Source of the DNA: Candidatus Methanospirareceae archaeon
Lineage (GTDB): Archaea > Halobacteriota > Syntropharchaeia > Alkanophagales > Methanospirareceae
Direction: 5' to 3'
Assembly: GCA_049975405.1 (NCBI GenBank)
Contig: JBNGDK010000004.1
Span: 270-64,269 of the forward strand
DNA length: 64,000 nt
In this document: one piece after another, positions 12,834 through 44,301 of the stretch
Layout: each line of letters opens with the position of its first letter
Position numbering within the stretch: position 1 is the stretch's first letter
Notes under the pieces: generated by a model
The model's input: the letters and a program-made list of their open reading frames with translations, nothing else
Databases searched by the model: none
What the model was told of the DNA's origin: nothing
Translations under genes and position numbers: made by a program

Positions 12834-13109
12834 TTAATTCATAAACTCTTTTAATATTGCGTTTTTACTAGATAGTTCCATCATTCTCTCCTCTTCTCTA
12901 ATAACGTTATTACTGTAATGTACTGTACCTGTGTGTTTTTCTTGCTCTAATTCCTTAATTTCTGCATTGATTTCGTTAATTCTGTTCTCTATTCGGCTTC
13001 TTTCACTTGCCATCATCATGACCCTACTTGTAACAAATGCACCCATTAATCCGACTATGGCCGCTGCTGATTGCGCTAGGGCAGAATAAAACCAATTTGG
13101 ATCAGTCAT
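12834..13109 (-). CDS. Small membrane / coiled-coil protein of unknown function, translationally coupled to the R-M enzyme
   Basis: 91 aa with one TM helix (ALAQSAAAIVGLMGAFV) followed by a coiled coil. There is a 4-nt overlap with the upstream R-M gene. The gene is AT-rich. Confidence 0.4.
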   Translation of the reverse strand: MTDPNWFYSALAQSAAAIVGLMGAFVTSRVMMMASERSRIENRINEINAEIKELEQEKHTGTVHYSNNVIREEERMMELSSKNAILKEFMN

Positions 13110-16090
13110 TCTCCCTCAACCACTTTTATCTCTTCCTCCGTTAGCCCATACAAGTCATAAACCAGTTTATCAATCTGCGCATCAACAATTTTTATTTGTC
13201 GTTCGTACAGCTCCTTGTCACGTTCCATCTTTGCCTCGTGGTATTTCTTCTGTAAATAGAGCATGTTCTCAACCAAGGAAACGACTTTATCGTGTTGTGC
13301 TTTTTCTTCGGGATCTGATAGATTAATTTTTGGAAAAGGTAAATCATAAAGTTTTGTTGCTTTTATTTGTGGAATAACTCTTAACTCCCCTTGAGTTGAT
13401 ATTTGATACAGGAATCCAAAAATGTTTGAGTGAAGTACTCCCAATACGAACTGATGTGATACCCTTGAATCCTTTTTTAACTTAAAAATATAAAGAGCAT
13501 CGGTCGCATAAAAATCTGAGCTTTCATCAAAGACAACGCTAATTTTTCTTGTTGTTGTCAAACCTATAAATTTTGGAGACTTAAAGATTCCCGGATTTCT
13601 TGGTCTATGAAGAGAAAACCATGGATGTTTGCCTTCTGCTACTTCACGGCATGTAATTTTGTCACGATATAAAGCTAAGTGATTTCTAACATTTGGATAT
13701 TTTTTAATATCATCTTTCCTTGTGAGATAAATAATTGATAAGGAGGAATCTATCGAACCATATCGCGATACATGTTGTCCAAGAACAACTTTCCGAAGTA
13801 CTTCCGGCTCGAACTCTTCTTTTTGGGCTTTCCAATCTTCAATAACAAAAGCCTCCAAGTAATCAGGAGTTATTCCTCTTTGAATTTCACCATCGAGAAT
13901 ACTCCTAAATTTAATATGATTATCCTTCAAACAGCTTAGGATCGAAACTCCTGAGAGATTTCTTGTAAAATAAGTGAAATACGAATCACTAAGCACAACA
14001 TTCTTCCAGTTCAGAAATGGGGAATACCCAATTTTAGAAAGTTGATTAGGTTTTTCATTAGAAGAAAAATCACGAAGATCAGCAACAATAAAGCCCCTTT
14101 TATTTGTTTCGTGTGCAACTCGTGAAACCACCAAAATTGTGGAGGTATTAAGGACATTCCTTCCGAAAACTTCAGTTCCCAGGTTTATTACAATATTAAC
14201 CTGAAAATCATTAATGAAGAAGCGGCGAAGATTTTGATTGTCTACTTGTGTTAGAAATGTGCTTGGGATTATCACCCCCAAGAGCCCTGATTTAGATAAA
14301 AGTTGCGATGATTTATGTAAGAAAAACATGAATGAATCAATCATTCTAATTATAATCTGGCTGTGCCTCTCGCGCAAATACTCTAGATCTTCATCTGGCA
14401 GAGTAGCACCCCACGGCGGATTCCCAATAACGCAATCGTACCCACCGCGTTTCATGATCTTCCCGAACCCTTTTTTGTCATCGTTCCAATCGAAGACGTT
14501 GATCCGCCGCATCTCATCTTCGTTAAAGAGCGTTGTCTGCTGCGTCTCGTAGAAATCGGGCCCGATGAGCGAATTCCCGCATTTGATATTATCTTCGAGA
14601 TTCGGCAGGATGCCCTCCAGCCCTAATTTCACCTGCTGGTTGATGCTCTCTCTACTCTCGTTCTCAAGCACCTTTAACAGCAAACTCAGTTTCGTTACTT
14701 CGACCGCCTGCTGGTCTATATCCACGCCGAAGATGTTATTGATAAGAATCCGCTTTTTCTCCGCCGTTGTCAGGTACCACTCGTTCTCTTTCACCTGAAA
14801 TACCGCGTTCTTGTGCTTCTTCGGCTGGTGACTGATGTACCAATCAAGATGATACTTCAGCAGGTACGTGTATGCGCCAATAAGGAAGCTCCCGGAGCCG
14901 CACGCAGGATCCAGAATCTTCAGTTCCGCGATCTCGTCCGGTGTCTTTCCCGTTATCAGCTTACCCACGGTGTTCTTGACAATATAGTCAACGATATACT
15001 GCGGCGTGTAATACACACCGCCCGCCTTTTTCACCTCCGGCTTCGTCTCCACCTTTGCCTGATGGCCCGCGGTCAATCGGATGACCTTACCCAGGAATTG
15101 CTCGTAAACGTTCCCCAGTATCTCGACTCCGAGCACTGAGAATTCGTACGGCGACTCTGGATAATACAGATGCCGAATGATCGTTTTCAAGACCTTATCA
15201 TCAATATGCAACGCGGGCGTTATTCTATCAGCCTCGAAATCGAATATGCCACTGTCGTATTTGGACTCCGCAAGTTTGAAGTGATTTAACAGGTGCTTGT
15301 AAACCTCATTGGATTCCGCTTTCGTCTGTAACTGGCCGTACGGTTCGATCCCTCTATCCTCGCAAATCCGCAGGAAGATGACTCGGTCTATAATCTTCTG
15401 TACCGCGTAGTTCAACTCGTAAATTGTTACGTCCGGATTGCGCAATGCGATGTTCTTGGCCAGCAACTCGCGCCAGGTCTCGATCTCCTTCAAAAATTCG
15501 GTATCAACTGCCGCCGTGCCCTTCTTGCCTTTGGTTGATTCCGCGTACCGATCAAAACTGCCTTTGAGTATCGCCTCTTTTGAAAAGACATCGTAGATCT
15601 CATCGAACCGATCGAGATAATCTTCAAACGTGTAATACGCGATCCTCCCCACACCAGTTTTGTCCGTTGCTTGAGGCTTGATCTGGCAGTCAAAGACCGA
15701 TAACTCCTCAAAATCCGTTAAGATCGATAACGGTAGTTTCGCACTCCATGCATACCGTCGCAACTGATACGAAGGACTGATATCCGCTTTTATGTTCACT
15801 GCCGGCTTCTTCGCTTCGACAAAGAACTTCCGTTGGCCACCAATCCTAAAGCTGTAATCCGGCGCCTTGGTTGAACGGCCCACTTTTATCGCGTCTTCGT
15901 GAATTACTTCCTTGTATTGCTCCGCATAGCCCTGGGCATTGCTCACATCCCAGCCCAGTGCTTCAAAGAAGGGATCAATAAATTCACGCCGGACCTGCGT
16001 CTCGTTATACGTAGATCGCTTATATACGTCAATGTTCGTTCGGAATCGCTCAACGAGTTCTTTAACCTTCTCCTTCGCTGCTTCCTTCAT
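13106..16090 (-). CDS. Type IIG/IIL fused restriction endonuclease and N6-adenine methyltransferase (MmeI/Eco57I-like)
   Basis: 994 aa. The N-terminus has a PD-(D/E)xK nuclease motif (APDYSF...FVEAKK). Methyltransferase motif I is ILDPACGSGSFL and motif IV is VIGNPPWGA. The C-terminal roughly 430 aa form the target-recognition region. The 3' half of the gene (about 13106-14400) is markedly AT-rich compared with the 5' half. Confidence 0.85.
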   Translation of the reverse strand: MKEAAKEKVKELVERFRTNIDVYKRSTYNETQVRREFIDPFFEALGWDVSNAQGYAEQYKEVIHEDAIKVGRSTKAPDYSFRIGGQRKFFVEAKKPAVNIKADISPSYQLRRYAWSAKLPLSILTDFEELSVFDCQIKPQATDKTGVGRIAYYTFEDYLDRFDEIYDVFSKEAILKGSFDRYAESTKGKKGTAAVDTEFLKEIETWRELLAKNIALRNPDVTIYELNYAVQKIIDRVIFLRICEDRGIEPYGQLQTKAESNEVYKHLLNHFKLAESKYDSGIFDFEADRITPALHIDDKVLKTIIRHLYYPESPYEFSVLGVEILGNVYEQFLGKVIRLTAGHQAKVETKPEVKKAGGVYYTPQYIVDYIVKNTVGKLITGKTPDEIAELKILDPACGSGSFLIGAYTYLLKYHLDWYISHQPKKHKNAVFQVKENEWYLTTAEKKRILINNIFGVDIDQQAVEVTKLSLLLKVLENESRESINQQVKLGLEGILPNLEDNIKCGNSLIGPDFYETQQTTLFNEDEMRRINVFDWNDDKKGFGKIMKRGGYDCVIGNPPWGATLPDEDLEYLRERHSQIIIRMIDSFMFFLHKSSQLLSKSGLLGVIIPSTFLTQVDNQNLRRFFINDFQVNIVINLGTEVFGRNVLNTSTILVVSRVAHETNKRGFIVADLRDFSSNEKPNQLSKIGYSPFLNWKNVVLSDSYFTYFTRNLSGVSILSCLKDNHIKFRSILDGEIQRGITPDYLEAFVIEDWKAQKEEFEPEVLRKVVLGQHVSRYGSIDSSLSIIYLTRKDDIKKYPNVRNHLALYRDKITCREVAEGKHPWFSLHRPRNPGIFKSPKFIGLTTTRKISVVFDESSDFYATDALYIFKLKKDSRVSHQFVLGVLHSNIFGFLYQISTQGELRVIPQIKATKLYDLPFPKINLSDPEEKAQHDKVVSLVENMLYLQKKYHEAKMERDKELYERQIKIVDAQIDKLVYDLYGLTEEEIKVVEGE

Positions 16091-17213
16091 TTATCTCCGT
16101 TTCTTTTTTAGATGCTTTCTTTTGACGCTCAGTCTTACGTTTTAGTTTCAATTTCATTTTATAATAGCTCAAGGGATGCCCAATCTTCTCACACACATCA
16201 TCACTATCACCGCAATTCCCGTAGGTCCGCATGGTTGAGCACGAGGGTGCTGAGTAGCGGGTACTGCCCAGCTCGCCCGAGATATGCACCACCTGATACC
16301 GCGTTCGCTCCTCATCGAAATCCGGTGAGCTCCTATAGAGCTCGATTATTTCGTCGACCGTCAAGCCCACGTTCAGCAAAAATGAGGTCACTGCGAACCG
16401 TGCGGTATGGGGCACATTAACCCCCGCACGGAGATTGCTCAGAATCGCCTTGATACAGGGCGGGAAGCTGGCAGGATCTTTTACCCGCATGCCCGTCTCA
16501 AACTCATTCTCATCTACCCGCTTCCGCCACGCTTCCAGCTCTGCTTTCAGATCCTTCGTGTACCGGAGCACCGATTCGCAGATCGCGGTGGGCACGTCAA
16601 GCGGCAGATCCTTACGTATACGCGCGTGAATCGCCTCTTGCAGAATACGCAAAAACTCGTTCGTTCGCAAATTCACCTGGCCGTTCTCGAGCGCACGATT
16701 CACCAGCTTCCAGCGCTTGTCACGGAGATTGACCGTGTAGCGCAGATATTCATTGAATGGGATTCGCACTGGAGCGTGCTCGTGCGGCAACTCCATAAAC
16801 TCGAGATGGAGCTCGAATTCACGTGCCATCTCGTAGAGTAGATCAGTATCGCCACCGCCAACCAATGACCCGGACGCCTCTTTCAGTGCCACGTACGCGG
16901 ATTTCGCCTCTGCGAGTGCAAAACGACGAACGAGGTGCTCGTTGTTGATACAGGAGACCAGAATACGAGCAAACGGATATGAGAGCAGCTCGATCTCCGC
17001 CTGAGTCCTGGTCATCACTGTCGGCTTACGAATCATTCCTGAACGGATCGTTTCACGCACGCGTTCCCTGCCACGCACGCGCGCACGCTCGAACGCGGCA
17101 CTGGAAATGAGCTCCTCGAGGGTAATGCCAGATGCTTCCACGTAACTCGTTGCCGCAGCCAGAAACGGAAAGTAGCTCAGGTGCGAAGCTTCTAATACCC
17201 CTTCCTCATTCAT
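16062..17213 (-). CDS. priL: DNA primase large subunit PriL
   Basis: 383 aa with a PriL helical domain and a C-terminal Fe-S cysteine set (CIKAIL...CSTMRTYGNCGD...C). Its 3' end overlaps the R-M start by 29 nt. Confidence 0.8.
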   Translation of the reverse strand: MNEEGVLEASHLSYFPFLAAATSYVEASGITLEELISSAAFERARVRGRERVRETIRSGMIRKPTVMTRTQAEIELLSYPFARILVSCINNEHLVRRFALAEAKSAYVALKEASGSLVGGGDTDLLYEMAREFELHLEFMELPHEHAPVRIPFNEYLRYTVNLRDKRWKLVNRALENGQVNLRTNEFLRILQEAIHARIRKDLPLDVPTAICESVLRYTKDLKAELEAWRKRVDENEFETGMRVKDPASFPPCIKAILSNLRAGVNVPHTARFAVTSFLLNVGLTVDEIIELYRSSPDFDEERTRYQVVHISGELGSTRYSAPSCSTMRTYGNCGDSDDVCEKIGHPLSYYKMKLKLKRKTERQKKASKKETEINEGSSEGEG

Positions 17214-33079: not shown

Positions 33080-33307
33080 TGGCGAACTTCCACGAACTTC
33101 TACGGCTTGAGAGCGGACGCGCCGGTGGTTTACGACAACGGCCTGCTGCGGCAGCTCTCGTGGCTAGAAAGCGTTCGGGCGCAATCGTTCCCGGACGAGT
33201 ACTACTTCGCGGGGACGGTGGCGCAAAAATACCACCGACTCGGCGATGCCGTGCCGCCTAAGCTTGCGGAAGCGATCGCGCGGAGCATCAGGGAGCTTGA
33301 GAGGTGA
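33080..33307 (+). pseudogene. C-terminal remnant of a DNA cytosine-5 methyltransferase
   Basis: The frame opens right after the in-frame stop at 33062-64. The motif LSWLESVRAQSFPDEYYFAGTVAQKYHRLGDAVPPKLAEAIARSI matches the conserved C-terminal block of Dcm-type C5-MTases (..QSFPDD..F.GS...QY.QIGNAVPP.LA.AIA..I). Only about 65 codons survive, and they directly abut the MATE gene stop. Confidence 0.6.
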
Positions 33308-33328: not shown

Positions 33329-33532
33329 TTGATCATCCCTAAGCACAAAACCATTCGCATGATGCGGAATGCGAACCACGAAGCATGCTGGTCCGACATC
33401 AAGGATAAAGCACGGCGCATAAGAACGGTCGTTGACGACTCGGGTGCGGTCTACGATGTCTACAGGATCTCAGCTAAAGATCTTTTGTTTGTGATGATCA
33501 AGCAAGCGCACCCCAACACCCGCCCGGCGTAA
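33329..33532 (+). CDS. Small ORF of unknown function, possibly a further remnant of the decayed modification locus
   Basis: 67 aa with no recognisable domain. Confidence 0.2.
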   Translation: MIIPKHKTIRMMRNANHEACWSDIKDKARRIRTVVDDSGAVYDVYRISAKDLLFVMIKQAHPNTRPA

Positions 33533-33634
33533 CCATCAAAAATCCGCTAACACGCCCATTCAGGATGTTGTGGTTCGTTCTCATGCGCAAGTTTATATAC
33601 TGTATACATTTCCGACGTTATTGGGGTACAATTT

Positions 33635-33916
33635 ATGGGAAGAGAACCGTCAGAAGGCAAACCATTAGAAGACGCGCACATCTTAACACATCCTGTAAGG
33701 CACCGGATCGTGGAGCTGCTCGCGAAAAGGCCGATGCCCATCGACGCGCTGAGCAGAGCATTGGACGAAAAGAGGGGGCTCGTCGCGTACCATCTCGATA
33801 CGTTGCAAGAGCACGGATTCGTGAAGAGCGACTACGGACTCCTCTTACTGCTAGAGTCGGAGCAGAGAATAACGGCACTGAGGTTTACACGGCGACCGAT
33901 AAGGTGGCGTATGTAA
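33635..33916 (+). CDS. Winged-helix (ArsR-like) transcriptional regulator
   Basis: 93 aa. LTHPVRHRIVELLAKRPMPIDALSRALDEKRGLVAYHLDTLQEHGFV is an ArsR/HTH-5 pattern. Confidence 0.6.
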   Translation: MGREPSEGKPLEDAHILTHPVRHRIVELLAKRPMPIDALSRALDEKRGLVAYHLDTLQEHGFVKSDYGLLLLLESEQRITALRFTRRPIRWRM

Positions 33917-34042
33917 GTGAAGGCCGCGCTGAAGAAGGCGTTTTGAGTTAAACTAAGTCAACGAGCTTTCGAGTTTAAGTTCAGTTCGATCTTAAAATTA
34001 TATAGTGCAGCACGTAGTGCGCGCATCCAGGGGCTGTTTACC

Positions 34043-34792
34043 GTGCCTTCTAGTAGCTCACATGTCGAGGAAGCGAAGCCGCCCGCGCACCGCAGACGCG
34101 GCGGAACAGTTCCGTCACGAGCCAGCATATCCACCGGGCTGCCACGGCTCGATCCCTATTTAGGTGCATTCAAGGCGGGCAGTGTGAGCCTGATTGAGGG
34201 CAACCATCCTTTCATCTCCGAGGTGCTCTCCCTGCTCGCCATCAACACGATCACGCACCTGGAAAAATCGGTCGTGTACGTGGATGGCGGGAATTCCATT
34301 GATCCTTACCTCATTGCGACGCTCGCCAAGCGATCAGGGGTAAAACCGGCTAAGGTACTTCCGCAGATCCTGGTTGCACGGGCGTTCACCGCGTATCAAC
34401 TGGACACTATCATCTCAGATCGACTCGAAGCGGAGCTCGATCAGGCGAAGCCAGGCCTGCTGATCGTTGCTCGCATTACAGATCTCTTCATGGATCGTGC
34501 GGTGATGGAGAAGGAAGCGCTCGCCATGTTAACACGATGCGTTTCATGCATCGAAACGAGCACTCACGACCGGCAATTGATCACCGTGGTCACGAAGCGG
34601 CGGCGAGCGCCCTCGTCACGCGCGCTGGCGTTTGACGAGGTTTTCGCGAAGCTCGCGGAAGAGCGGATCGGCGTAGAGCGCAGGAAAAAGGGCGTCAGGC
34701 TACGCCAGCACACGCGTGGTAGCCTCATGGATTACGTGCCACTTTCGATCTATCAAACGACCCTGGATGAGTTCATAGGCGGTGGTACGTGA
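34043..34792 (+). CDS. RadB/KaiC-like RecA-superfamily protein lacking the Walker A motif (predicted inactive ATPase)
   Basis: 249 aa. The layout is RadB-like: STGLPRLDPYLGAFKAGSVSLIEG...VVYVDGGNSIDPY...PGLLIVARITDLF. The P-loop position reads IEGNHPFISEV, and there is no GK[ST] anywhere in the protein. Confidence 0.6.
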   Translation: MPSSSSHVEEAKPPAHRRRGGTVPSRASISTGLPRLDPYLGAFKAGSVSLIEGNHPFISEVLSLLAINTITHLEKSVVYVDGGNSIDPYLIATLAKRSGVKPAKVLPQILVARAFTAYQLDTIISDRLEAELDQAKPGLLIVARITDLFMDRAVMEKEALAMLTRCVSCIETSTHDRQLITVVTKRRRAPSSRALAFDEVFAKLAEERIGVERRKKGVRLRQHTRGSLMDYVPLSIYQTTLDEFIGGGT

Positions 34793-35069
34793 AATGGGCA
34801 GGACGGTCCGCACGTATCGGACGGTGCTGGAAGAGCTGATCGCTGACTGGGAACGGTTCAGGAAAGCATTGCGGAAAGAGGATCGGGAAGCGTTCGATCG
34901 CCTGATGGAGAAAGCGCGCACACACGCCAGCGCGGCCAGCTACGATGCGCGCTTTGATCCCAGCGAATCACTCTTCATGTCTATCCTGGTGGAACTGGAA
35001 CGTGAGCTCGAGGAGCTGCGAACGAAACTCGATAAGTTGGAGAAGCAGCAGGAGGAGCAGGAGCAGTGA
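34782..35069 (+). CDS. Coiled-coil protein, middle gene of the RadB-like/PolB-paralog operon
   Basis: About 92-95 aa. The likely start is the ATG at 34794, 2 nt after the upstream stop. The C-terminus is LERELEELRTKLDKLEKQQEEQEQ. Its stop overlaps the downstream GTG start (GTGA at 35066-69). Confidence 0.45.
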   Translation: MVREMGRTVRTYRTVLEELIADWERFRKALRKEDREAFDRLMEKARTHASAASYDARFDPSESLFMSILVELERELEELRTKLDKLEKQQEEQEQ

Positions 35070-37294
35070 ACGGCTGGGTACTCGACGTTGGTGCGGATTA
35101 TGGACAGAACCGTATTGTTCTCTGGCTGAAGCAGGAGAATGGTGCGGTCGAAGCGGTGGAATGCCCCTTCTTTCCCTCGCTGTATGTGCACGCGGCGCCC
35201 GCGAACCTGCAGGAACTGGAAGAGACCTTTGAGGGCGAGCCGTTCATCAACGCACTGGCGTACGAGGAGAAACGGCTGTGGCCGGGCGAGCCTGCGCAGG
35301 AGGTGTTAAGAATCACGCTCGCGGAGTACCGGATGCTCATGAAGCTCGCGCGCGAGATTGACGAGATGGGTGATTACGCGCTCTATGAGCTCTTCAACGT
35401 GGACCTCAGTATCCCCACGGCGTTTATGCTGGAGAAGGGCATCGTCCCGATGGCGCAGATCGCACTTACCGGCGAGTATGAGTTCGAGGTGCTCGAAGAC
35501 CTTACCGCTATTGATTACCCGCTCCCGGAGCTCCGTAGCATCAGCCTGGAATGCAAGGTCACGGCTACAAGCCCGCAGATGGCTGCATGTTGTCCATTAT
35601 CCGGGCTCCTACTCGATCGCCAGCCGGTGGCTGGTCACACTGAGCGGGATGTACTCAGTGGACTCATTGACGCGATCACTGCTGCAGACCCCGACATTGT
35701 GTACACCACTAATGGCGATGCGTTCCTTATCCCGTACCTCATGAACCGTGCAAGGCTCAACGAGCTCGATGACTTCTATCTCGGCCGCGGACGCGACCTC
35801 AGTCCGGTGGGGCAGCCGAAGTCCTATTTCAGCTACGGGCGCGTGATCTACCGGCCACCAAAATGCCGCTTCAACGGCCGGATACACATCGATCAGAGCA
35901 GCTCATTCCTCTTCCGCGAGGGCGGGCTCCCTGGCTTGATCGAGCTCGCGCGACTGTCACGGATTCCACTGCAATCGCTCTCTCGCGTGACGCCCGGCAC
36001 GGTGATCACCGCGATGCAAATCGCGGAAGCGTCGCAGGAGAACGTCCTCATTCGCTGGAAGAAGAACGTGCCTGAGGCGTTTAAAGACGCCCAAACGCTC
36101 TTCCTCGCCGATCGCGGTGGTATGATCTACGGTCCCCACGTGGGCATCCACGAAAACGTGGTGGAGATCGACTTCACCTCGCTCTACCCTACCATTATGG
36201 TAAAGCAGAACATCTCGCCTGAGACCGTGCTCTGCTCGTGCTGTCCTGAGAGCAGCCACCGTGTTCCCGTGATCGATTACCCGATCTGCGAGCAGCGGGT
36301 GGGGCTGATCCCGCGTGTCCTGGAGCCGGTGATCGAGCGCCGGAGTGAATACAAGCGGCGTGTGAAATCGAACAGATGGCGGGACTCGCACGCGATCTAT
36401 AAGGCGCGGAAGAACGTCCTGAAATGGATCCTCGTCACCTGTTTCGGCTACACCGGCTACAAAAATGCTCGGTTCGGCCGGATCGAATGCCACGAAGCGA
36501 TCAATGCGTACGGCAGAGAGCTGCTGCTCCAGACCGCGCAGATAGCGGAAGAGCGTGGCTATGAGGTGCTCCACGGGATCATCGATTCGCTCTGGTTGAA
36601 GGGCGGCGCGCGGAATGCACGCGACCATGAGCGATTGCGGCAAGCGATCGAGCACGAGACAGGCATGCCACTGGAGCTCGAGGGCGTGTATCGCTGGGTC
36701 GTCTTTCTGCCCCGGAAGGGCGGGGTCATTGGTGCGCTGAACCGTTACTACGGGCTCTTTGTAGACGGCACGGTGAAGGTCCGTGGCCTGGAGCTGAGGC
36801 GCAGCGATACGCCACTGCTGATCAGGAACGCACAGCTGGACATGCTGAAGGTTATGGCCAGGGCAGATACCGTGGCGGCGTTGTACGAGCTCATGCCGGA
36901 CGTTATCGAGGTTCTCCGTGGTTATGCCGATCGCATAGTGAACAACGAGTGCGCGTTGGATGAGCTGGTCTTCACGCCCGTGGTCTCACGCGAGCTCGAG
37001 TTCTATTCGCACCTGACAAACAACGCCGCATGCTTGTTCCAGTTGAAGCGGCGCGGACGATCCGTGCACCCAGGCGAGCAAATACAGTATATCGTGACCG
37101 ATGCAGGCTCAGGGCGGTATGCAAAAAAGGTCAAGGCCTGGGAACTGGTGAAAGGCACAGAGCAGTACGATAAGAAGTGCTACGTCCGCTATGTGCTCCG
37201 GGCCGGCGAGAGCATCCTCTCGCCGTTCGGGTATACAGAACGCAAACTGGCAGAGCTCATCAAACCCACACGACAGGTGATGCTTCCGGTCTAG
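35066..37294 (+). CDS. Family-B DNA polymerase paralog with a dead 3'-5' exonuclease and a degenerate motif C (inactivated-PolB-like)
   Basis: 742 aa. The PolB N-terminal domain is intact (MNGWVLDVGADYGQNRIVLWLK...FFPSLYVHA). Exo I FDIE is replaced by ISLECKV. In Exo II (NGDAFLIPYL) the FD aspartate is lost. Motif A is IDFTSLYPTI (Asp kept). Motif B is KWILVTCFGYTGYKNARFG (kept). Motif C YGDTDS is replaced by HGIIDS (one Asp lost). Confidence 0.8.
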   Translation: MNGWVLDVGADYGQNRIVLWLKQENGAVEAVECPFFPSLYVHAAPANLQELEETFEGEPFINALAYEEKRLWPGEPAQEVLRITLAEYRMLMKLAREIDEMGDYALYELFNVDLSIPTAFMLEKGIVPMAQIALTGEYEFEVLEDLTAIDYPLPELRSISLECKVTATSPQMAACCPLSGLLLDRQPVAGHTERDVLSGLIDAITAADPDIVYTTNGDAFLIPYLMNRARLNELDDFYLGRGRDLSPVGQPKSYFSYGRVIYRPPKCRFNGRIHIDQSSSFLFREGGLPGLIELARLSRIPLQSLSRVTPGTVITAMQIAEASQENVLIRWKKNVPEAFKDAQTLFLADRGGMIYGPHVGIHENVVEIDFTSLYPTIMVKQNISPETVLCSCCPESSHRVPVIDYPICEQRVGLIPRVLEPVIERRSEYKRRVKSNRWRDSHAIYKARKNVLKWILVTCFGYTGYKNARFGRIECHEAINAYGRELLLQTAQIAEERGYEVLHGIIDSLWLKGGARNARDHERLRQAIEHETGMPLELEGVYRWVVFLPRKGGVIGALNRYYGLFVDGTVKVRGLELRRSDTPLLIRNAQLDMLKVMARADTVAALYELMPDVIEVLRGYADRIVNNECALDELVFTPVVSRELEFYSHLTNNAACLFQLKRRGRSVHPGEQIQYIVTDAGSGRYAKKVKAWELVKGTEQYDKKCYVRYVLRAGESILSPFGYTERKLAELIKPTRQVMLPV

Positions 37295-37322: not shown

Positions 37323-38228
37323 CTATACGCGCGTGAGGCGTTCTAACTGCCGTAGAAGGTGCCTCCTGAGCTCTTTTACTGCCAGTGAGGCGGTGAGATG
37401 TCCTTTCTCCAGCGTCGCTATCCGTCGGTTGCCATAGCAGAGCCGTTGACGGTCAAAACGGATAATTTGATCGTGCCGTGCCAGTAGCGGGAACACGTTA
37501 TTCGCTTGTACACGTGCGAACTCCCGCTCGAAGTTGAGCACCGCTCTTAGTTCGTCTGGGCTTGCGCGAGCGAGACGCCCGGTCAGCTTTCGGTAAACAG
37601 ACCTCGTGAAGATGTCGCCAAGCGCCGCACCGGCGAGCAAGGGCACGTAGGCATCAGCGGTATTGTAAAACGCGCGGTGGATATTCGTGACCCAGCCGCC
37701 AAGGCTTATACCGGTAACCATCACGCGATTACCTGTACTCAGTTTGAAGTAGCTCGTAAGATCGTTAATGAGTTTGACGGAGACGGCGAGCATGGCTGCG
37801 AACTTCGCCAAATCGCGCAGTTGCTCCGAGTAGGTCTTCAGCGAGCGCCGGTGAAAGGGCGCGGCGAGCACAATGAGGTTTGCCTGCACGGGCTCTTGCG
37901 AGCAAAGAAAGATCCGCTTGAAGCTCGTATGGCTGAACCAGCGGAAATCAAAGGGGCGCTCTGCGTTCCCATGATGCCAGAGCACGGTTGGATACTCCTC
38001 GCCCAGCCACTGAACGAAATAGAATGCGGGCTTGAAACGTCCAACGAGCGATTCTGCCGTGAGCTCGTAAATCCCCGGACCGTTTATTCGGGGCAGCCGC
38101 AGCTTTGTCCTTGCCAGATGCTCAGCAAGCGGCGGACTCTCGATACTCGCACTAAAGAATTTGTATCGGTTTAGCGCGAGTGCAGAAAGCTCTACTGCGA
38201 GGGCATCGATGAGTGCGTGGTAGTTCAT
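37323..38228 (-). CDS. Alpha/beta-hydrolase fold protein
   Basis: 301 aa with a GISLGGW nucleophile elbow (GxSxG). Confidence 0.55.
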   Translation of the reverse strand: MNYHALIDALAVELSALALNRYKFFSASIESPPLAEHLARTKLRLPRINGPGIYELTAESLVGRFKPAFYFVQWLGEEYPTVLWHHGNAERPFDFRWFSHTSFKRIFLCSQEPVQANLIVLAAPFHRRSLKTYSEQLRDLAKFAAMLAVSVKLINDLTSYFKLSTGNRVMVTGISLGGWVTNIHRAFYNTADAYVPLLAGAALGDIFTRSVYRKLTGRLARASPDELRAVLNFEREFARVQANNVFPLLARHDQIIRFDRQRLCYGNRRIATLEKGHLTASLAVKELRRHLLRQLERLTRV

Positions 38229-38351: not shown

Positions 38352-39641
38352 GTGAAGTGGCTCAGTCGACTCCGTGGCCGGGAGGAAATCGCAGTGCCAA
38401 CCACCGTGGCCTTCGAGGAGCTCGATGCGTGGTTGGCTCAGGTCTCAAAGTCGCTCCTCGGTGATCTCAGTGCGAACGCTGAGCAGGGATATACAGCGAT
38501 CCGTGAGAGTCGTGACCGTCTCAAGCAACGTGTCGCTGAGCTTGGGGACGCGGACTCAACAGAGCAGGTGCCAGATCGTATTGTAAAGATCGGGTTAACG
38601 AGCCGGAAGAAGATGGTCAAGCATCTCCAGGCGATAACCGAAAAGATCACGCTGCCAGCACAGACCGATTATCACACTATTATAGCCTTTCATCATGAGA
38701 CCACCGCGGCGCTCGAATTCCCGTTTGGTAAATCGCAGACTAATATCTACTGTGTCCGCTCGCTCTTCCCTAATGAGATCAAAGAGATCATCAATGAGCT
38801 GAACCAGTTGCGAAGCGGTCTTGACCTGATGATCGCGCCGTTACAGGGCAAAGAGCAGCAGCTCCATGCGTTAGAGCGTGTGCCCGAACTCGCGGCGAGC
38901 AGCAAGCAGCTCCGTGCAGAGCTCCTGCAGGAACGCGAGCATCTCAGCAACCAGGAAAACGAGCTCACAACGCTCAACCAGCGAATTGAGCATGAGTGGA
39001 AGCAGCAGCAAATGCTGGAAGCAAGTGAGGAATGGCATCGGCTCACGACGCTCGAGCACGAGCGATCAGCTTTGCACGCGGAACTGGACGAGCTCGATTC
39101 GAACGTGCAGAAACTTTTTGCACCGCTTTCCAAACCGCTGATGCTGCTCCTGAAACAGGACGAATCTGGTCGGCTCACGCTCGCGCAGACCGATCGGCGC
39201 GCGATCTCGTCGCTGCTCGAATCGCCGAGTCAGGCACTTGAGGACGATATCACGGGATCGCTCAGCAGTATAAAGGGGCTCATTGAGGACGATCCCACGG
39301 TATTGAAGGATCGAAAACGCGAAACTGCACTGAGCTGGCTGGATAAGCTGCTCAAGGCTGATCTCGTCTCGATCGCAGAGAAACGGCGGAGAATACTATC
39401 GCAGATCGCAGAAGTGGAGGCTTCCTGTACGAATGCTGCGATTCGGCATGAGAAAGAGGAGCGCGAACGGGCACTTTCGAGCGCACAGGAGCAACTCACG
39501 CAGGCGGCGGGAGAACGTGATCGCGCAACAAAGCGAATCGCTATGCTCGAAGCAGATCTTGTTAAAACGAAGCAGTCCTTAGATGCCACACTGACTGAGC
39601 TTGCTAATAAGGAAATCGAGTTCGTGCTCGAGGTGCCGTGA
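38352..39641 (+). CDS. Large coiled-coil protein of unknown function
   Basis: 429 aa with extended heptad-like E/Q/L-rich segments and no enzymatic motif. Confidence 0.4.
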   Translation: MKWLSRLRGREEIAVPTTVAFEELDAWLAQVSKSLLGDLSANAEQGYTAIRESRDRLKQRVAELGDADSTEQVPDRIVKIGLTSRKKMVKHLQAITEKITLPAQTDYHTIIAFHHETTAALEFPFGKSQTNIYCVRSLFPNEIKEIINELNQLRSGLDLMIAPLQGKEQQLHALERVPELAASSKQLRAELLQEREHLSNQENELTTLNQRIEHEWKQQQMLEASEEWHRLTTLEHERSALHAELDELDSNVQKLFAPLSKPLMLLLKQDESGRLTLAQTDRRAISSLLESPSQALEDDITGSLSSIKGLIEDDPTVLKDRKRETALSWLDKLLKADLVSIAEKRRRILSQIAEVEASCTNAAIRHEKEERERALSSAQEQLTQAAGERDRATKRIAMLEADLVKTKQSLDATLTELANKEIEFVLEVP

Positions 39642-43290: not shown

Positions 43291-44301
43291 TTAGAGCCAC
43301 TGCTCGATGCTTAGTTGCATCTTCTTCGCTTTGGTTGCATCGGGCTGCACCGCGAGCTTCTCGAGCGCCTTACGCACCCGCTCTTCGGAAAAATCGTGCT
43401 CCTCGCAGAGGAATTCGAGCACTTTCACCTCGTTCACCGCGCCCCACGCGAGCTCGTATGACTCGTTCACCGCGGGCTGCAAAAAGATCTCACGCACGCG
43501 CTCGTAGCCTTCTAGCCCTTCGGTCTCCGCGAGCGCACCTGCTTCCAGGATCTGCTCGATACCGTGATGCTCTCTGACGAGTTTGAGCGCGCGTTTCGCG
43601 CCAATGCCCTTCACGCCCGGGTTGAAATCGGTGCCGATAAGGATAGCGATGTCCACGAGCTCTTCTCTGGATATGCCGTGCTCTGCTTCGACCTCGTGTA
43701 ACGATATGAGCTCGAGCTTAGCGTCGCGCCGCGGTGCGGTGAGATTCCGGATCATCATGGGCGCGCCGAAGAGCAGGCAGTCGAAGTCCTGAGAGGAGAC
43801 GAGTTCGGCATCGCCTTTATGGACCATGTAAGCGGCCTGCGCCTCCCCTTCCGTTGGTGCCTGCACGCAGGGAACGCCCAGATACCCCAGAAGGATGTGC
43901 GCATCCTCGATGATCTGATCGCTGAGTCGTGTCGAGGCTTTAGCGTACTTCAATGCCTCTTCGGGCGCCACCACTTTCGCCAGTTCCCATTTCTGACGCG
44001 CTTCCCTGCGCCGCTCAGACCGCGCCTGTATCACCTCGGTCTTCAGCTCTGAAGGTTGACCATCGAAGACGAGGATCGGTTTTATGTGCCGCTCCAGTAA
44101 CCGGGACGTGCGGTAGATCAAGCCAGAAAGATGCGAGGTGACACGGCCCTGGGCGTCCTTGAGCGGCGTGCCGTCCGGCTGGCGGATGATGCTCAGGAAC
44201 TGGTAGAGCGTATTATAAGCGTCGATCGCAACGATCTTGCCGGACAATGCCTCTAACTTCGTTGCACGGGGCGATACAAGATCGCTGATGGTAACTCCCA
44301 T
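43291..44301 (-). CDS. fen: Flap endonuclease FEN-1
   Basis: 336 aa with N and I nuclease domains (GKIVAIDAYNTLYQF...) and a C-terminal PCNA-interaction tail (QLSIEQWL). Confidence 0.95.
   Translation of the reverse strand: MGVTISDLVSPRATKLEALSGKIVAIDAYNTLYQFLSIIRQPDGTPLKDAQGRVTSHLSGLIYRTSRLLERHIKPILVFDGQPSELKTEVIQARSERRREARQKWELAKVVAPEEALKYAKASTRLSDQIIEDAHILLGYLGVPCVQAPTEGEAQAAYMVHKGDAELVSSQDFDCLLFGAPMMIRNLTAPRRDAKLELISLHEVEAEHGISREELVDIAILIGTDFNPGVKGIGAKRALKLVREHHGIEQILEAGALAETEGLEGYERVREIFLQPAVNESYELAWGAVNEVKVLEFLCEEHDFSEERVRKALEKLAVQPDATKAKKMQLSIEQWL

Follow-up and report, generated by a model that had tools for sequence, protein, structure and literature searches.

A canonical PolB2-iRadA-PPB2 operon in the chromosome of an ANME-1-related archaeon

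Introduction

The archaeal family-B DNA polymerase paralog PolB2 is encoded in a predicted operon together with an inactivated RadA and arCOG07300, an α-helical protein of ~90 amino acids (Makarova, Krupovic & Koonin 2014, PMC4104785; Makarova & Koonin 2013 is also named as a source for this operon), and it was proposed that these proteins form a complex with a role in repairing damage or in regulating replication (PMC4104785). Here, we describe such an operon in a stretch of 64,000 nucleotides (the window) from a Candidatus Methanospirareceae archaeon, in which three consecutive genes encode the RadA-like protein, the small protein and PolB2. This trio almost certainly belongs to the described family, and the copy in the window is a canonical one, with the commonest gene order.

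The two partners were later renamed iRadA and PPB2, and the gene orders of the system, including iRadA-PPB2-PolB2, were catalogued (Timinskas, Timinskas & Venclovas 2025, PMC11791011). In that work, a PolB2:iRadA:PPB2(3) heteropentamer was modelled and 40 complexes were published, for which three hallmarks were described: an N-terminal "MGRT" arm of PPB2 with Arg3 and Arg9, an invariant D(K/R) loop of PolB2 that touches this arm, and a β-α motif just before D(K/R), similar to the Rad51 oligomerization motif, that binds iRadA in the models. PCNA-binding motifs are commoner at the C-terminus of iRadA than in PolB2, and are frequent but not universal (PMC11791011). In addition, orc1/cdc6, SRAP and DUF72 genes have been reported to be enriched near polB2.

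The biochemistry of PolB2 is known from Sulfolobus Dpo2, which has no exonuclease activity and is a robust polymerase that incorporates nucleotides no less actively than the replicase Dpo1 (PMC8764526). Dpo2 is poor at insertion opposite lesions and is an efficient extender of mismatched or lesion-opposed termini (PMC8764526); it is damage-inducible and solely responsible for targeted mutagenesis (PMC7390963). An HxxxD form of motif C is the signature of PolB2, with IID in Sulfolobus (S.) islandicus Dpo2 (Feng et al. 2022, PMC8764526). The second Asp of motif C is a metal ligand, and the first Asp points away from the active site (PMC8764526).

The original prediction for this locus, made from the nucleotide sequence, regarded the partnership of an inactivated PolB paralog with a degenerate RecA-family protein as undescribed. 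Its reading of the motifs was accurate, and the claim of novelty fails against the literature, in which the operon had already been reported (PMC4104785) and modelled (PMC11791011).

Results

Gene layout and conservation of the trio

The three genes lie on the plus strand in the order iRadA, PPB2 and PolB2 (Table 1). The TGA stop codon of iRadA (34790-92) is separated by one base from the ATG of PPB2 at 34794, and the GTG start codon of PolB2 (35066-68) overlaps the TGA stop codon of PPB2 (35067-69) within GTGA. As can be read in the sequence, each of the internal starts is preceded by a purine-rich, Shine-Dalgarno-like stretch: GGTGGT ahead of 34794, and AGGAGG/GGAG ahead of 35066. All three reading frames are intact, and identical products of 249 and 742 amino acids are called by NCBI on the source metagenome-assembled genome (MAG), which is ANME-1-related. 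The translational coupling of three plus-strand genes, as originally predicted, is thus confirmed in its coordinates, stop/start spacing and GTGA overlap. A putative TATA box, TTATATA, which lies ~40 nt 5′ of the iRadA start, is likely the operon promoter; it falls within a stretch (33965-34042) shared in collinear order with L001, the closest relative.

A scan of a genome collection with a PolB2 alignment yielded 80 related loci from ANME-1/Methanophagales, other Halobacteriota, Thermoplasmata, Methanomassiliicoccales, Methanoperedens, Theionarchaea and Hadarchaeota. Sixty-eight of them, with at least 1100 nt of upstream sequence, were informative for the gene order. The contiguous iRadA-PPB2-PolB2 trio was seen in 54/68; in 10/68, one or both partners lay at another place in the locus, and 4/68 had neither partner. 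Where the junction between PPB2 and PolB2 could be measured, the 4-nt overlap was its most frequent form (19 of 53). PPB2 adjoins PolB2 on the upstream side in most of the related loci.

In a minority of the loci from Methanomassiliicoccaceae and Thermoplasmatales (L019, L036, L073, L047, L063, L065 and L075), iRadA, sometimes with PPB2, lies 3-4 kb from PolB2. Neither partner was found within 3-6 kb of PolB2 in L058, L062, L069 and L074.

All three operon genes are under purifying selection. Relative to L001, whose PolB2 is 88% identical to that of the window, the ratios of non-synonymous to synonymous substitution rates (dN/dS) are 0.23 for iRadA, 0.06 for PPB2 and 0.14 for PolB2, with 0.09 for the adjacent MATE transporter gene. 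If the adjacency were fortuitous, or the genes decaying remnants, the degenerate catalytic motifs described below would be accounted for, and nothing else would; the contiguity of the trio across several archaeal classes, the conserved overlap, the low dN/dS values and the intact reading frames all run counter to such an origin, which can hardly be credited. Most relatives of this PolB paralog keep these neighbours, and the dedicated, co-inherited three-gene module envisaged in the original prediction stands, with products that very likely form one complex.

PolB2 retains the polymerase residues and has lost exonuclease residues

The window PolB2 matched the Pfam models DNA_pol_B (7e-31) and exo1, the exonuclease domain (2e-7), and the PRK05761 subfamilies of NCBIfam (about 1e-140), and its family profile matched the PolB structures of Pyrococcus and Thermococcus in the PDB (E = 5e-82). 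Identity with the replicative archaeal PolB1 or PolB3, which would show intact Exo I-III and a YxDTD motif C, was considered and rejected, as the window protein has neither.

Motif A, which reads veiDftSLYPsi in the family profile, carries the catalytic D369; this residue, S372 and P375 are conserved in 75/75 PolB2 relatives. In motif B (KwllvtcfGYtGY in the profile), K453, G461, Y462 and G464 are kept (75/75), whereas the canonical Asn-Ser is replaced by Thr-Cys. The prediction that the motif A Asp and motif B are retained therefore holds for the key residues but not for this pair. Motif C, HGIIDS, aligns with YIDTDG (HGivDS in the profile; canonical sequence YxDTDS), in agreement with the predicted replacement of DTDS by IIDS, and H503, G504 and the catalytic D507 are conserved in all 75 relatives, in which K571 is invariant as well.

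Conversely, the exonuclease positions have drifted. Leu221 occupies the position of the canonical catalytic Asp in Exo II, and this column varies among the 75 relatives (L24, Y11, D9, V8 and H7). The Exo I region of the window PolB2 contains no DxE motif. These observations uphold the prediction of a dead exonuclease, although the exact Exo I register that had been proposed (SLE) is uncertain, since HMMER aligns the segment differently. The Exo III region could not be aligned between the window PolB2 and the PDB PolB profile.

Invariant polymerase residues combined with drifting exonuclease positions are what one would expect of a polymerase that is active but has shed proofreading, and also what would be expected if selection acted on the polymerase chemistry and not just on the fold. 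Many PolB2 homologs of about 890-1260 amino acids, for example P0057, P0064, P0095, P0110 and P0116 from Thermoplasmata and Methanobacteriota MAGs, contain inteins (PF14890, PF14528), inserted at a site that corresponds to window residues ~458-460, within motif B and just ahead of the conserved Cys459. Inteins are typically found at sites under functional constraint, and their presence in a polymerase family regarded as inactivated is a further hint of functional constraint on motif B.

These results bear on the original interpretation that PolB2 is dead both as a polymerase and as an exonuclease, so that the trio would form a pseudo-enzyme complex, a module that only binds DNA or acts as a scaffold in replication or repair. 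Motif C does have Ile for its first Asp and His for the canonical Tyr; we also know of no euryarchaeal PolB2 that has been assayed. The same prediction was made in early comparative papers (Rogozin 2008, as cited in PMC4104785; Makarova 2014, PMC4104785). However, Sulfolobus Dpo2, with the same HxxxD/IID motif, incorporates nucleotides as actively as Dpo1, and the metal ligands D369 and D507 together with K453, K571 and H503 are invariant where the exonuclease positions vary; the inteins inside motif B point in the same direction. A pseudo-enzyme complex is thus in conflict with both the active ortholog and the conservation, and we consider it quite improbable. The loss of the first Asp of motif C should not be read as the death of the polymerase.

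Two further elements precede motif A. FKDA (F339-A342) is an FxxA-type motif that, from its sequence, is predicted to bind iRadA; position 339 is F or W in 74/75 relatives and position 342 is A in 71/75, and both are invariant in set A1. Seven residues farther on lies D349-R350, the predicted contact of the PPB2 arm, where D is found in 75/75 relatives at the first position, and R in 73 and K in 2 at the second. D349-R350 stands 156-158 residues before IID, compared with 148 in S. islandicus (253-DK-254, 401-IID-403). No pattern of the type Qxx[LIMV]xx[FY][FY] was found at the C-terminus of the window PolB2 (…KPTRQVMLPV).

iRadA is a RadA/Rad51 core without ATPase active-site residues

The first product of the operon matched Pfam Rad51 weakly (E = 5e-6), and a profile built from 18 members of its family matched the RadA ATPase core 4a6p with E = 1.6e-12. 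In the profile alignment, the RadA P-loop GEFGSGKT faces EG-NHPFI in the window iRadA and "dss-ssfv" in the family profile. Among 64 iRadA relatives, GK[ST] was found at the aligned P-loop position in none (0/64), and the Walker A pattern G(x4)GK[ST] nowhere in any of the proteins. Similarly, the RadA Walker B sequence LLIVDS faces LLIVAR in the window protein and "llvvsc" in the family profile, so that Ala143 takes the place of the catalytic Asp; this column is S, G or A in 55/64 relatives and Asp in none. These results show that the residues of the ATPase active site (Walker A Lys/Thr and Walker B Asp) are lost, and they bear out the P-loop loss that had been noted from the sequence.

An AlphaFold2 (AF2) model of iRadA (pLDDT 86.9, pTM 0.83) has a three-residue loop between strand 48-53 and helix 57-72 at the P-loop site; the predicted structure thus contains no intact nucleotide site, as the original prediction required. 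The top Foldseek matches of the model were RAD51/RadA cores, with a TM-score of about 0.7. The protein is without the N-terminal helical helix-hairpin-helix (HhH) domain, and its core is preceded in the model only by a disordered N-terminal tail of 25 residues.

The earlier assignment to a RadB/KaiC scaffold is right in that the protein has a RecA-family core devoid of ATPase motifs, but the closer relationship to RadB/KaiC was rejected: both the profile and Foldseek place the RadA/Rad51 core nearer. Archaeal RadB, too, is a short paralog of RadA that lacks the N-terminal HhH domain. RadB, however, keeps the Walker A motif and binds ATP, whereas the window iRadA has neither Walker A nor Walker B, and the sole RadB structure matched, 2cvf, was marginal (E = 0.08), compared with E = 1.6e-12 for the RadA core with the family profile.

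The C-terminus of the window iRadA reads ...YQTTLDEFIGGGT and contains QTTLDEFI, a candidate PCNA-binding motif. Q238 is invariant in the iRadA family, conservation is 90% or more at L241 and F244, and the QxxLxxF core is close to the C-terminus in most relatives.

PPB2 carries the conserved N-terminal arm

The 91-residue product had no match in scans of the Pfam and NCBIfam libraries; its 174 homologs, of about 85-95 amino acids, all carry the precomputed Pfam assignment PF26485. A resemblance of PPB2 to sigma factors has been reported. G2, R3, T4, V5 and R9 in the N-terminal arm are invariant in 31 homologs, and a G[RK]T N-terminus at the start codon was seen in 64 of 73 PPB2 matches in the related loci (63 GRT and 1 GKT). 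The AF2 monomer model comprises a free N-terminal arm followed by helices 8-25, 28-48 and 56-90, the last of which is a coiled-coil. One related locus (L033) contains a second, MGRT-less PPB2-like open reading frame (ORF; 1768-1956), which recalls the duplications of PPB2 that have been reported.

Surroundings of the operon

Table 1. Positions of the operon genes, their motifs and other features of the window
Feature	Position	Strand	Description or basis
Type IIG/Eco57I-like restriction-modification gene	13106-16090	-	994 aa
DNA primase large subunit gene	16062-17213	-	
Lineage-specific 884-bp segment	33081..33964	.	Between the MATE gene and the operon, outside the system; blastn collinearity with L001 breaks exactly there
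Truncated C5 cytosine methyltransferase	33107-33307		Last ~54 residues; Pfam DNA_methylase 1.5e-10, model positions 270-323 of 324
orf67	33329-33532		67-aa ORF without family assignment
ArsR/HTH_20 winged-helix gene	33635-33916		Pfam E = 4e-9
TATA-box-like element TTATATA	33998..34004	+	Putative promoter; read from sequence
iRadA gene	34043..34792	+	249 aa, GTG start
Degenerate P-loop position GNHPFISE, iRadA residues 53-60	34199..34222	+	GEFGSGKT in RadA; profile alignment
Walker B position LLIVA, iRadA residues 139-143	34457..34471	+	Ala143 in place of catalytic Asp
PCNA-binding-type motif QTTLDEFI, iRadA residues 238-245	34754..34777	+	Candidate; family conservation
PPB2 gene	34794..35069	+	91 aa, ATG start
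PPB2 N-terminal arm MGRTVRTYR (MGRT motif, Arg3, Arg9)	34794..34820	+	Homolog conservation
PolB2 gene	35066..37294	+	742 aa, GTG start
Degenerate Exo II NGDAFLIPY, PolB2 residues 216-224	35711..35737	+	Leu221 at canonical catalytic Asp; aligned with P. abyssi PolB NGDNF[D/A]FPYL
FKDA (F339-A342), FxxA-type motif	36080..36091	+	Predicted iRadA-binding, Rad51-oligomerization-like element
D349-R350, invariant D(K/R) loop motif before motif A	36110..36115	+	Predicted PPB2-arm contact
Polymerase motif A EIDFTSLYPT, catalytic D369	36164..36193	+	Aligned with VSLDFRSLYPSI of P. abyssi PolB
Polymerase motif B KWILVTCFGYTGY, K453	36422..36460	+	Aligned with KILANSYYGYYGY
Polymerase motif C HGIIDS, PolB2-specific HxxxD form (H503, catalytic D507)	36572..36589	+	Aligned with YIDTDG
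Alpha/beta-hydrolase-like gene	37323-38228	-	Immediately downstream of the operon
Coiled-coil protein gene	38352-39641	+	429 aa; immediately downstream of the operon
FEN1/XPG-family flap endonuclease gene	43291-44301	-	About 6 kb downstream of the operon

Upstream of the operon lie genes for a thermosome, DnaK, Sir2, an aminotransferase and the MATE transporter, and farther downstream are genes for an MBL-rhodanese protein, FEN1 and L11/L1/L10. This setting is relevant to the alternative that the complex is active but serves the initiation or restart of replication, origin-independent or recombination-dependent, and not translesion extension. An initiation role was raised by Makarova et al. 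2014 (PMC4104785) from the frequent arORC2 neighbour in Euryarchaeota; the association with orc1/cdc6 reported for many euryarchaeal loci would fit it, as would the RecA-family partner and the PolD replicase of these archaea, which makes for a cellular context unlike that of Sulfolobus. In the window, however, no orc1/cdc6 gene lies beside the operon, the neighbours of which are the MATE, hydrolase and coiled-coil protein genes and other housekeeping genes, and an iRadA unable to hydrolyse ATP cannot alone drive strand exchange. Furthermore, Sulfolobus Orc1-2 is itself described as a regulator of the damage response (PMC6061795), so that a link to orc would fit damage tolerance equally well. 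We therefore regard a function in initiation or restart as very improbable.

The segment that separates the MATE gene from the operon is specific to the lineage: in L001, the MATE stop codon is followed by only 5 bp before the sequence becomes collinear with the window from 33965 onward. No direct or terminal inverted repeats of note flank the segment, which is probably a lineage-specific, decayed remnant of a restriction-modification or mobile module. The winged-helix gene that it contains, preceded by its own near-identical TTATATA at 33593-33599, had been noted just upstream of the trio. It is indeed present, but lies outside the conserved system: searches with tblastn and phmmer gave 0 matches to its product in the 80 related loci, and no relative was found in viral contigs. 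A role as a conserved operon regulator was rejected on the basis of this absence and of its position in an indel relative to L001.

The 429-aa coiled-coil protein had no significant family match, with only weak matches to archaea-specific SMC-related proteins and CENP-K. This gene and the divergent alpha/beta-hydrolase-like gene are conserved at 88% in L001; the 429-aa protein is missing from the 79 remaining PolB2 loci and hence lies outside the system. The flap endonuclease FEN1 is another PCNA client, and its gene is probably an unrelated housekeeping gene. Farther away, the 994-aa fused restriction-modification enzyme, with Eco57I, N6_Mtase, HSDR_N and TaqI_C domains, is encoded by a gene that overlaps the start of the primase gene. 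No tRNA genes were found in the window.

Discussion

The locus very probably represents the chromosomal PolB2 "mutasome" operon of an ANME-1-related archaeon, encoding an active, proofreading-less extender polymerase in complex with an ATPase-dead iRadA and PPB2. On the published models, the three translationally coupled products would assemble into a single complex comprising a PPB2 trimer and one copy each of PolB2 and iRadA. PolB2 would be the catalytic subunit, active without 3′-5′ proofreading, and would extend mismatched or lesion-opposed primer ends during damage tolerance. iRadA, which should be unable to bind or hydrolyse ATP, would dock on PolB2 through the FxxA-type motif F339-A342, and its C-terminal QTTLDEFI would probably tether the complex to PCNA. 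One PPB2 subunit may insert its MGRT arm, which bears Arg3 and Arg9, close to the DNA between PolB2 and iRadA, and contact the D349-R350 loop. In the organism of the window, complex formation, PCNA binding and a role in damage tolerance are what the operon and its motifs would predict, whereas it is from the literature on the orthologs that we take the activity as a polymerase, the role as an extender, the induction by damage and the modelled architecture. By this analogy, and with indirect support from the invariant catalytic residues and the purifying selection, a translesion-extender role is likely.

Several points weigh against this interpretation. We know of no assay of a PolB2 from euryarchaea or Halobacteriota, organisms in which PolD is the replicase. 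The PPB2 monomer model is only moderately confident (pLDDT 76.7, pTM 0.37), and the candidate PCNA-binding function of QTTLDEFI is suggested by the sequence pattern only. No orc1/cdc6, SRAP or DUF72 gene was found among the annotated ORFs near the operon and across the window, in which not every small ORF was scanned, so that the context of the window locus gives no hint of damage regulation. Sulfolobales (Crenarchaeota) are the source of all of the biochemical and genetic evidence (PMC8764526, PMC7390963), and the complex is known in the literature as AlphaFold models only (PMC11791011).

It is unlikely that the locus departs from the described system, be it through a role other than that in Sulfolobus in PolD-replicating Halobacteriota, as a non-catalytic or replication-restart module, or through a new local control of the operon by the ArsR-type regulator brought with the 884-bp segment. 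The published sequence hallmarks are all intact, and no new question is opened by the window locus; as a clean, canonical copy in an uncultured archaeon of the methane cycle, it adds modestly to the case that the published model holds generally across Halobacteriota.

Compared with the described PolB2 mutasome operons, the window shares the three families, the common strand, the order iRadA-PPB2-PolB2 and the tight coupling, as well as the MGRT arm, the HxxxD and D(K/R) motifs with the preceding FxxA-like motif, and an iRadA without N-terminal domain and Walker motifs. The PCNA-type motif on iRadA, with none evident on PolB2, corresponds to the reported either/or pattern. There is no substantive difference; the window has the additional 884-bp segment upstream, and none of the neighbours reported to be enriched was found. 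With Dpo2 of S. islandicus and S. solfataricus, it has in common the IID in HxxxD, the loss of the exonuclease site, and the radA-like and arCOG07300 operon partners. Dpo2, however, is smaller than any other known PolB2 and its exonuclease domain is more decayed, whereas the 742-aa window PolB2 has an N-terminal/exonuclease scaffold that can still be aligned. The hosts also differ, Sulfolobales for Dpo2 and, for the window, a Halobacteriota archaeon of euryarchaeal type that uses PolD, and activity and damage induction are known for Dpo2 only.

The system, which has been studied experimentally in Sulfolobales only, constitutes a B-family translesion polymerase of several subunits in prokaryotes, and parallels can be drawn with Pol V and Pol zeta. 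The E. coli Pol V mutasome (UmuD'2C-RecA-ATP) is alike in that a translesion polymerase is bound to a RecA-family subunit through an oligomerization-like motif, and in that a small oligomeric subunit puts an N-terminal arm near the active site, an analogy drawn in PMC11791011. Pol V differs in belonging to the Y-family, in using an active RecA with ATP and in having a UmuD' dimer in place of the PPB2 trimer, and the two are not homologous as systems. Eukaryotic Pol zeta (Rev3-Rev7(2)-Pol31-Pol32) is, like the PolB2 complex, a B-family, proofreading-dead and multisubunit polymerase that extends distorted primer termini, but with unrelated accessory subunits and no RecA-family component.

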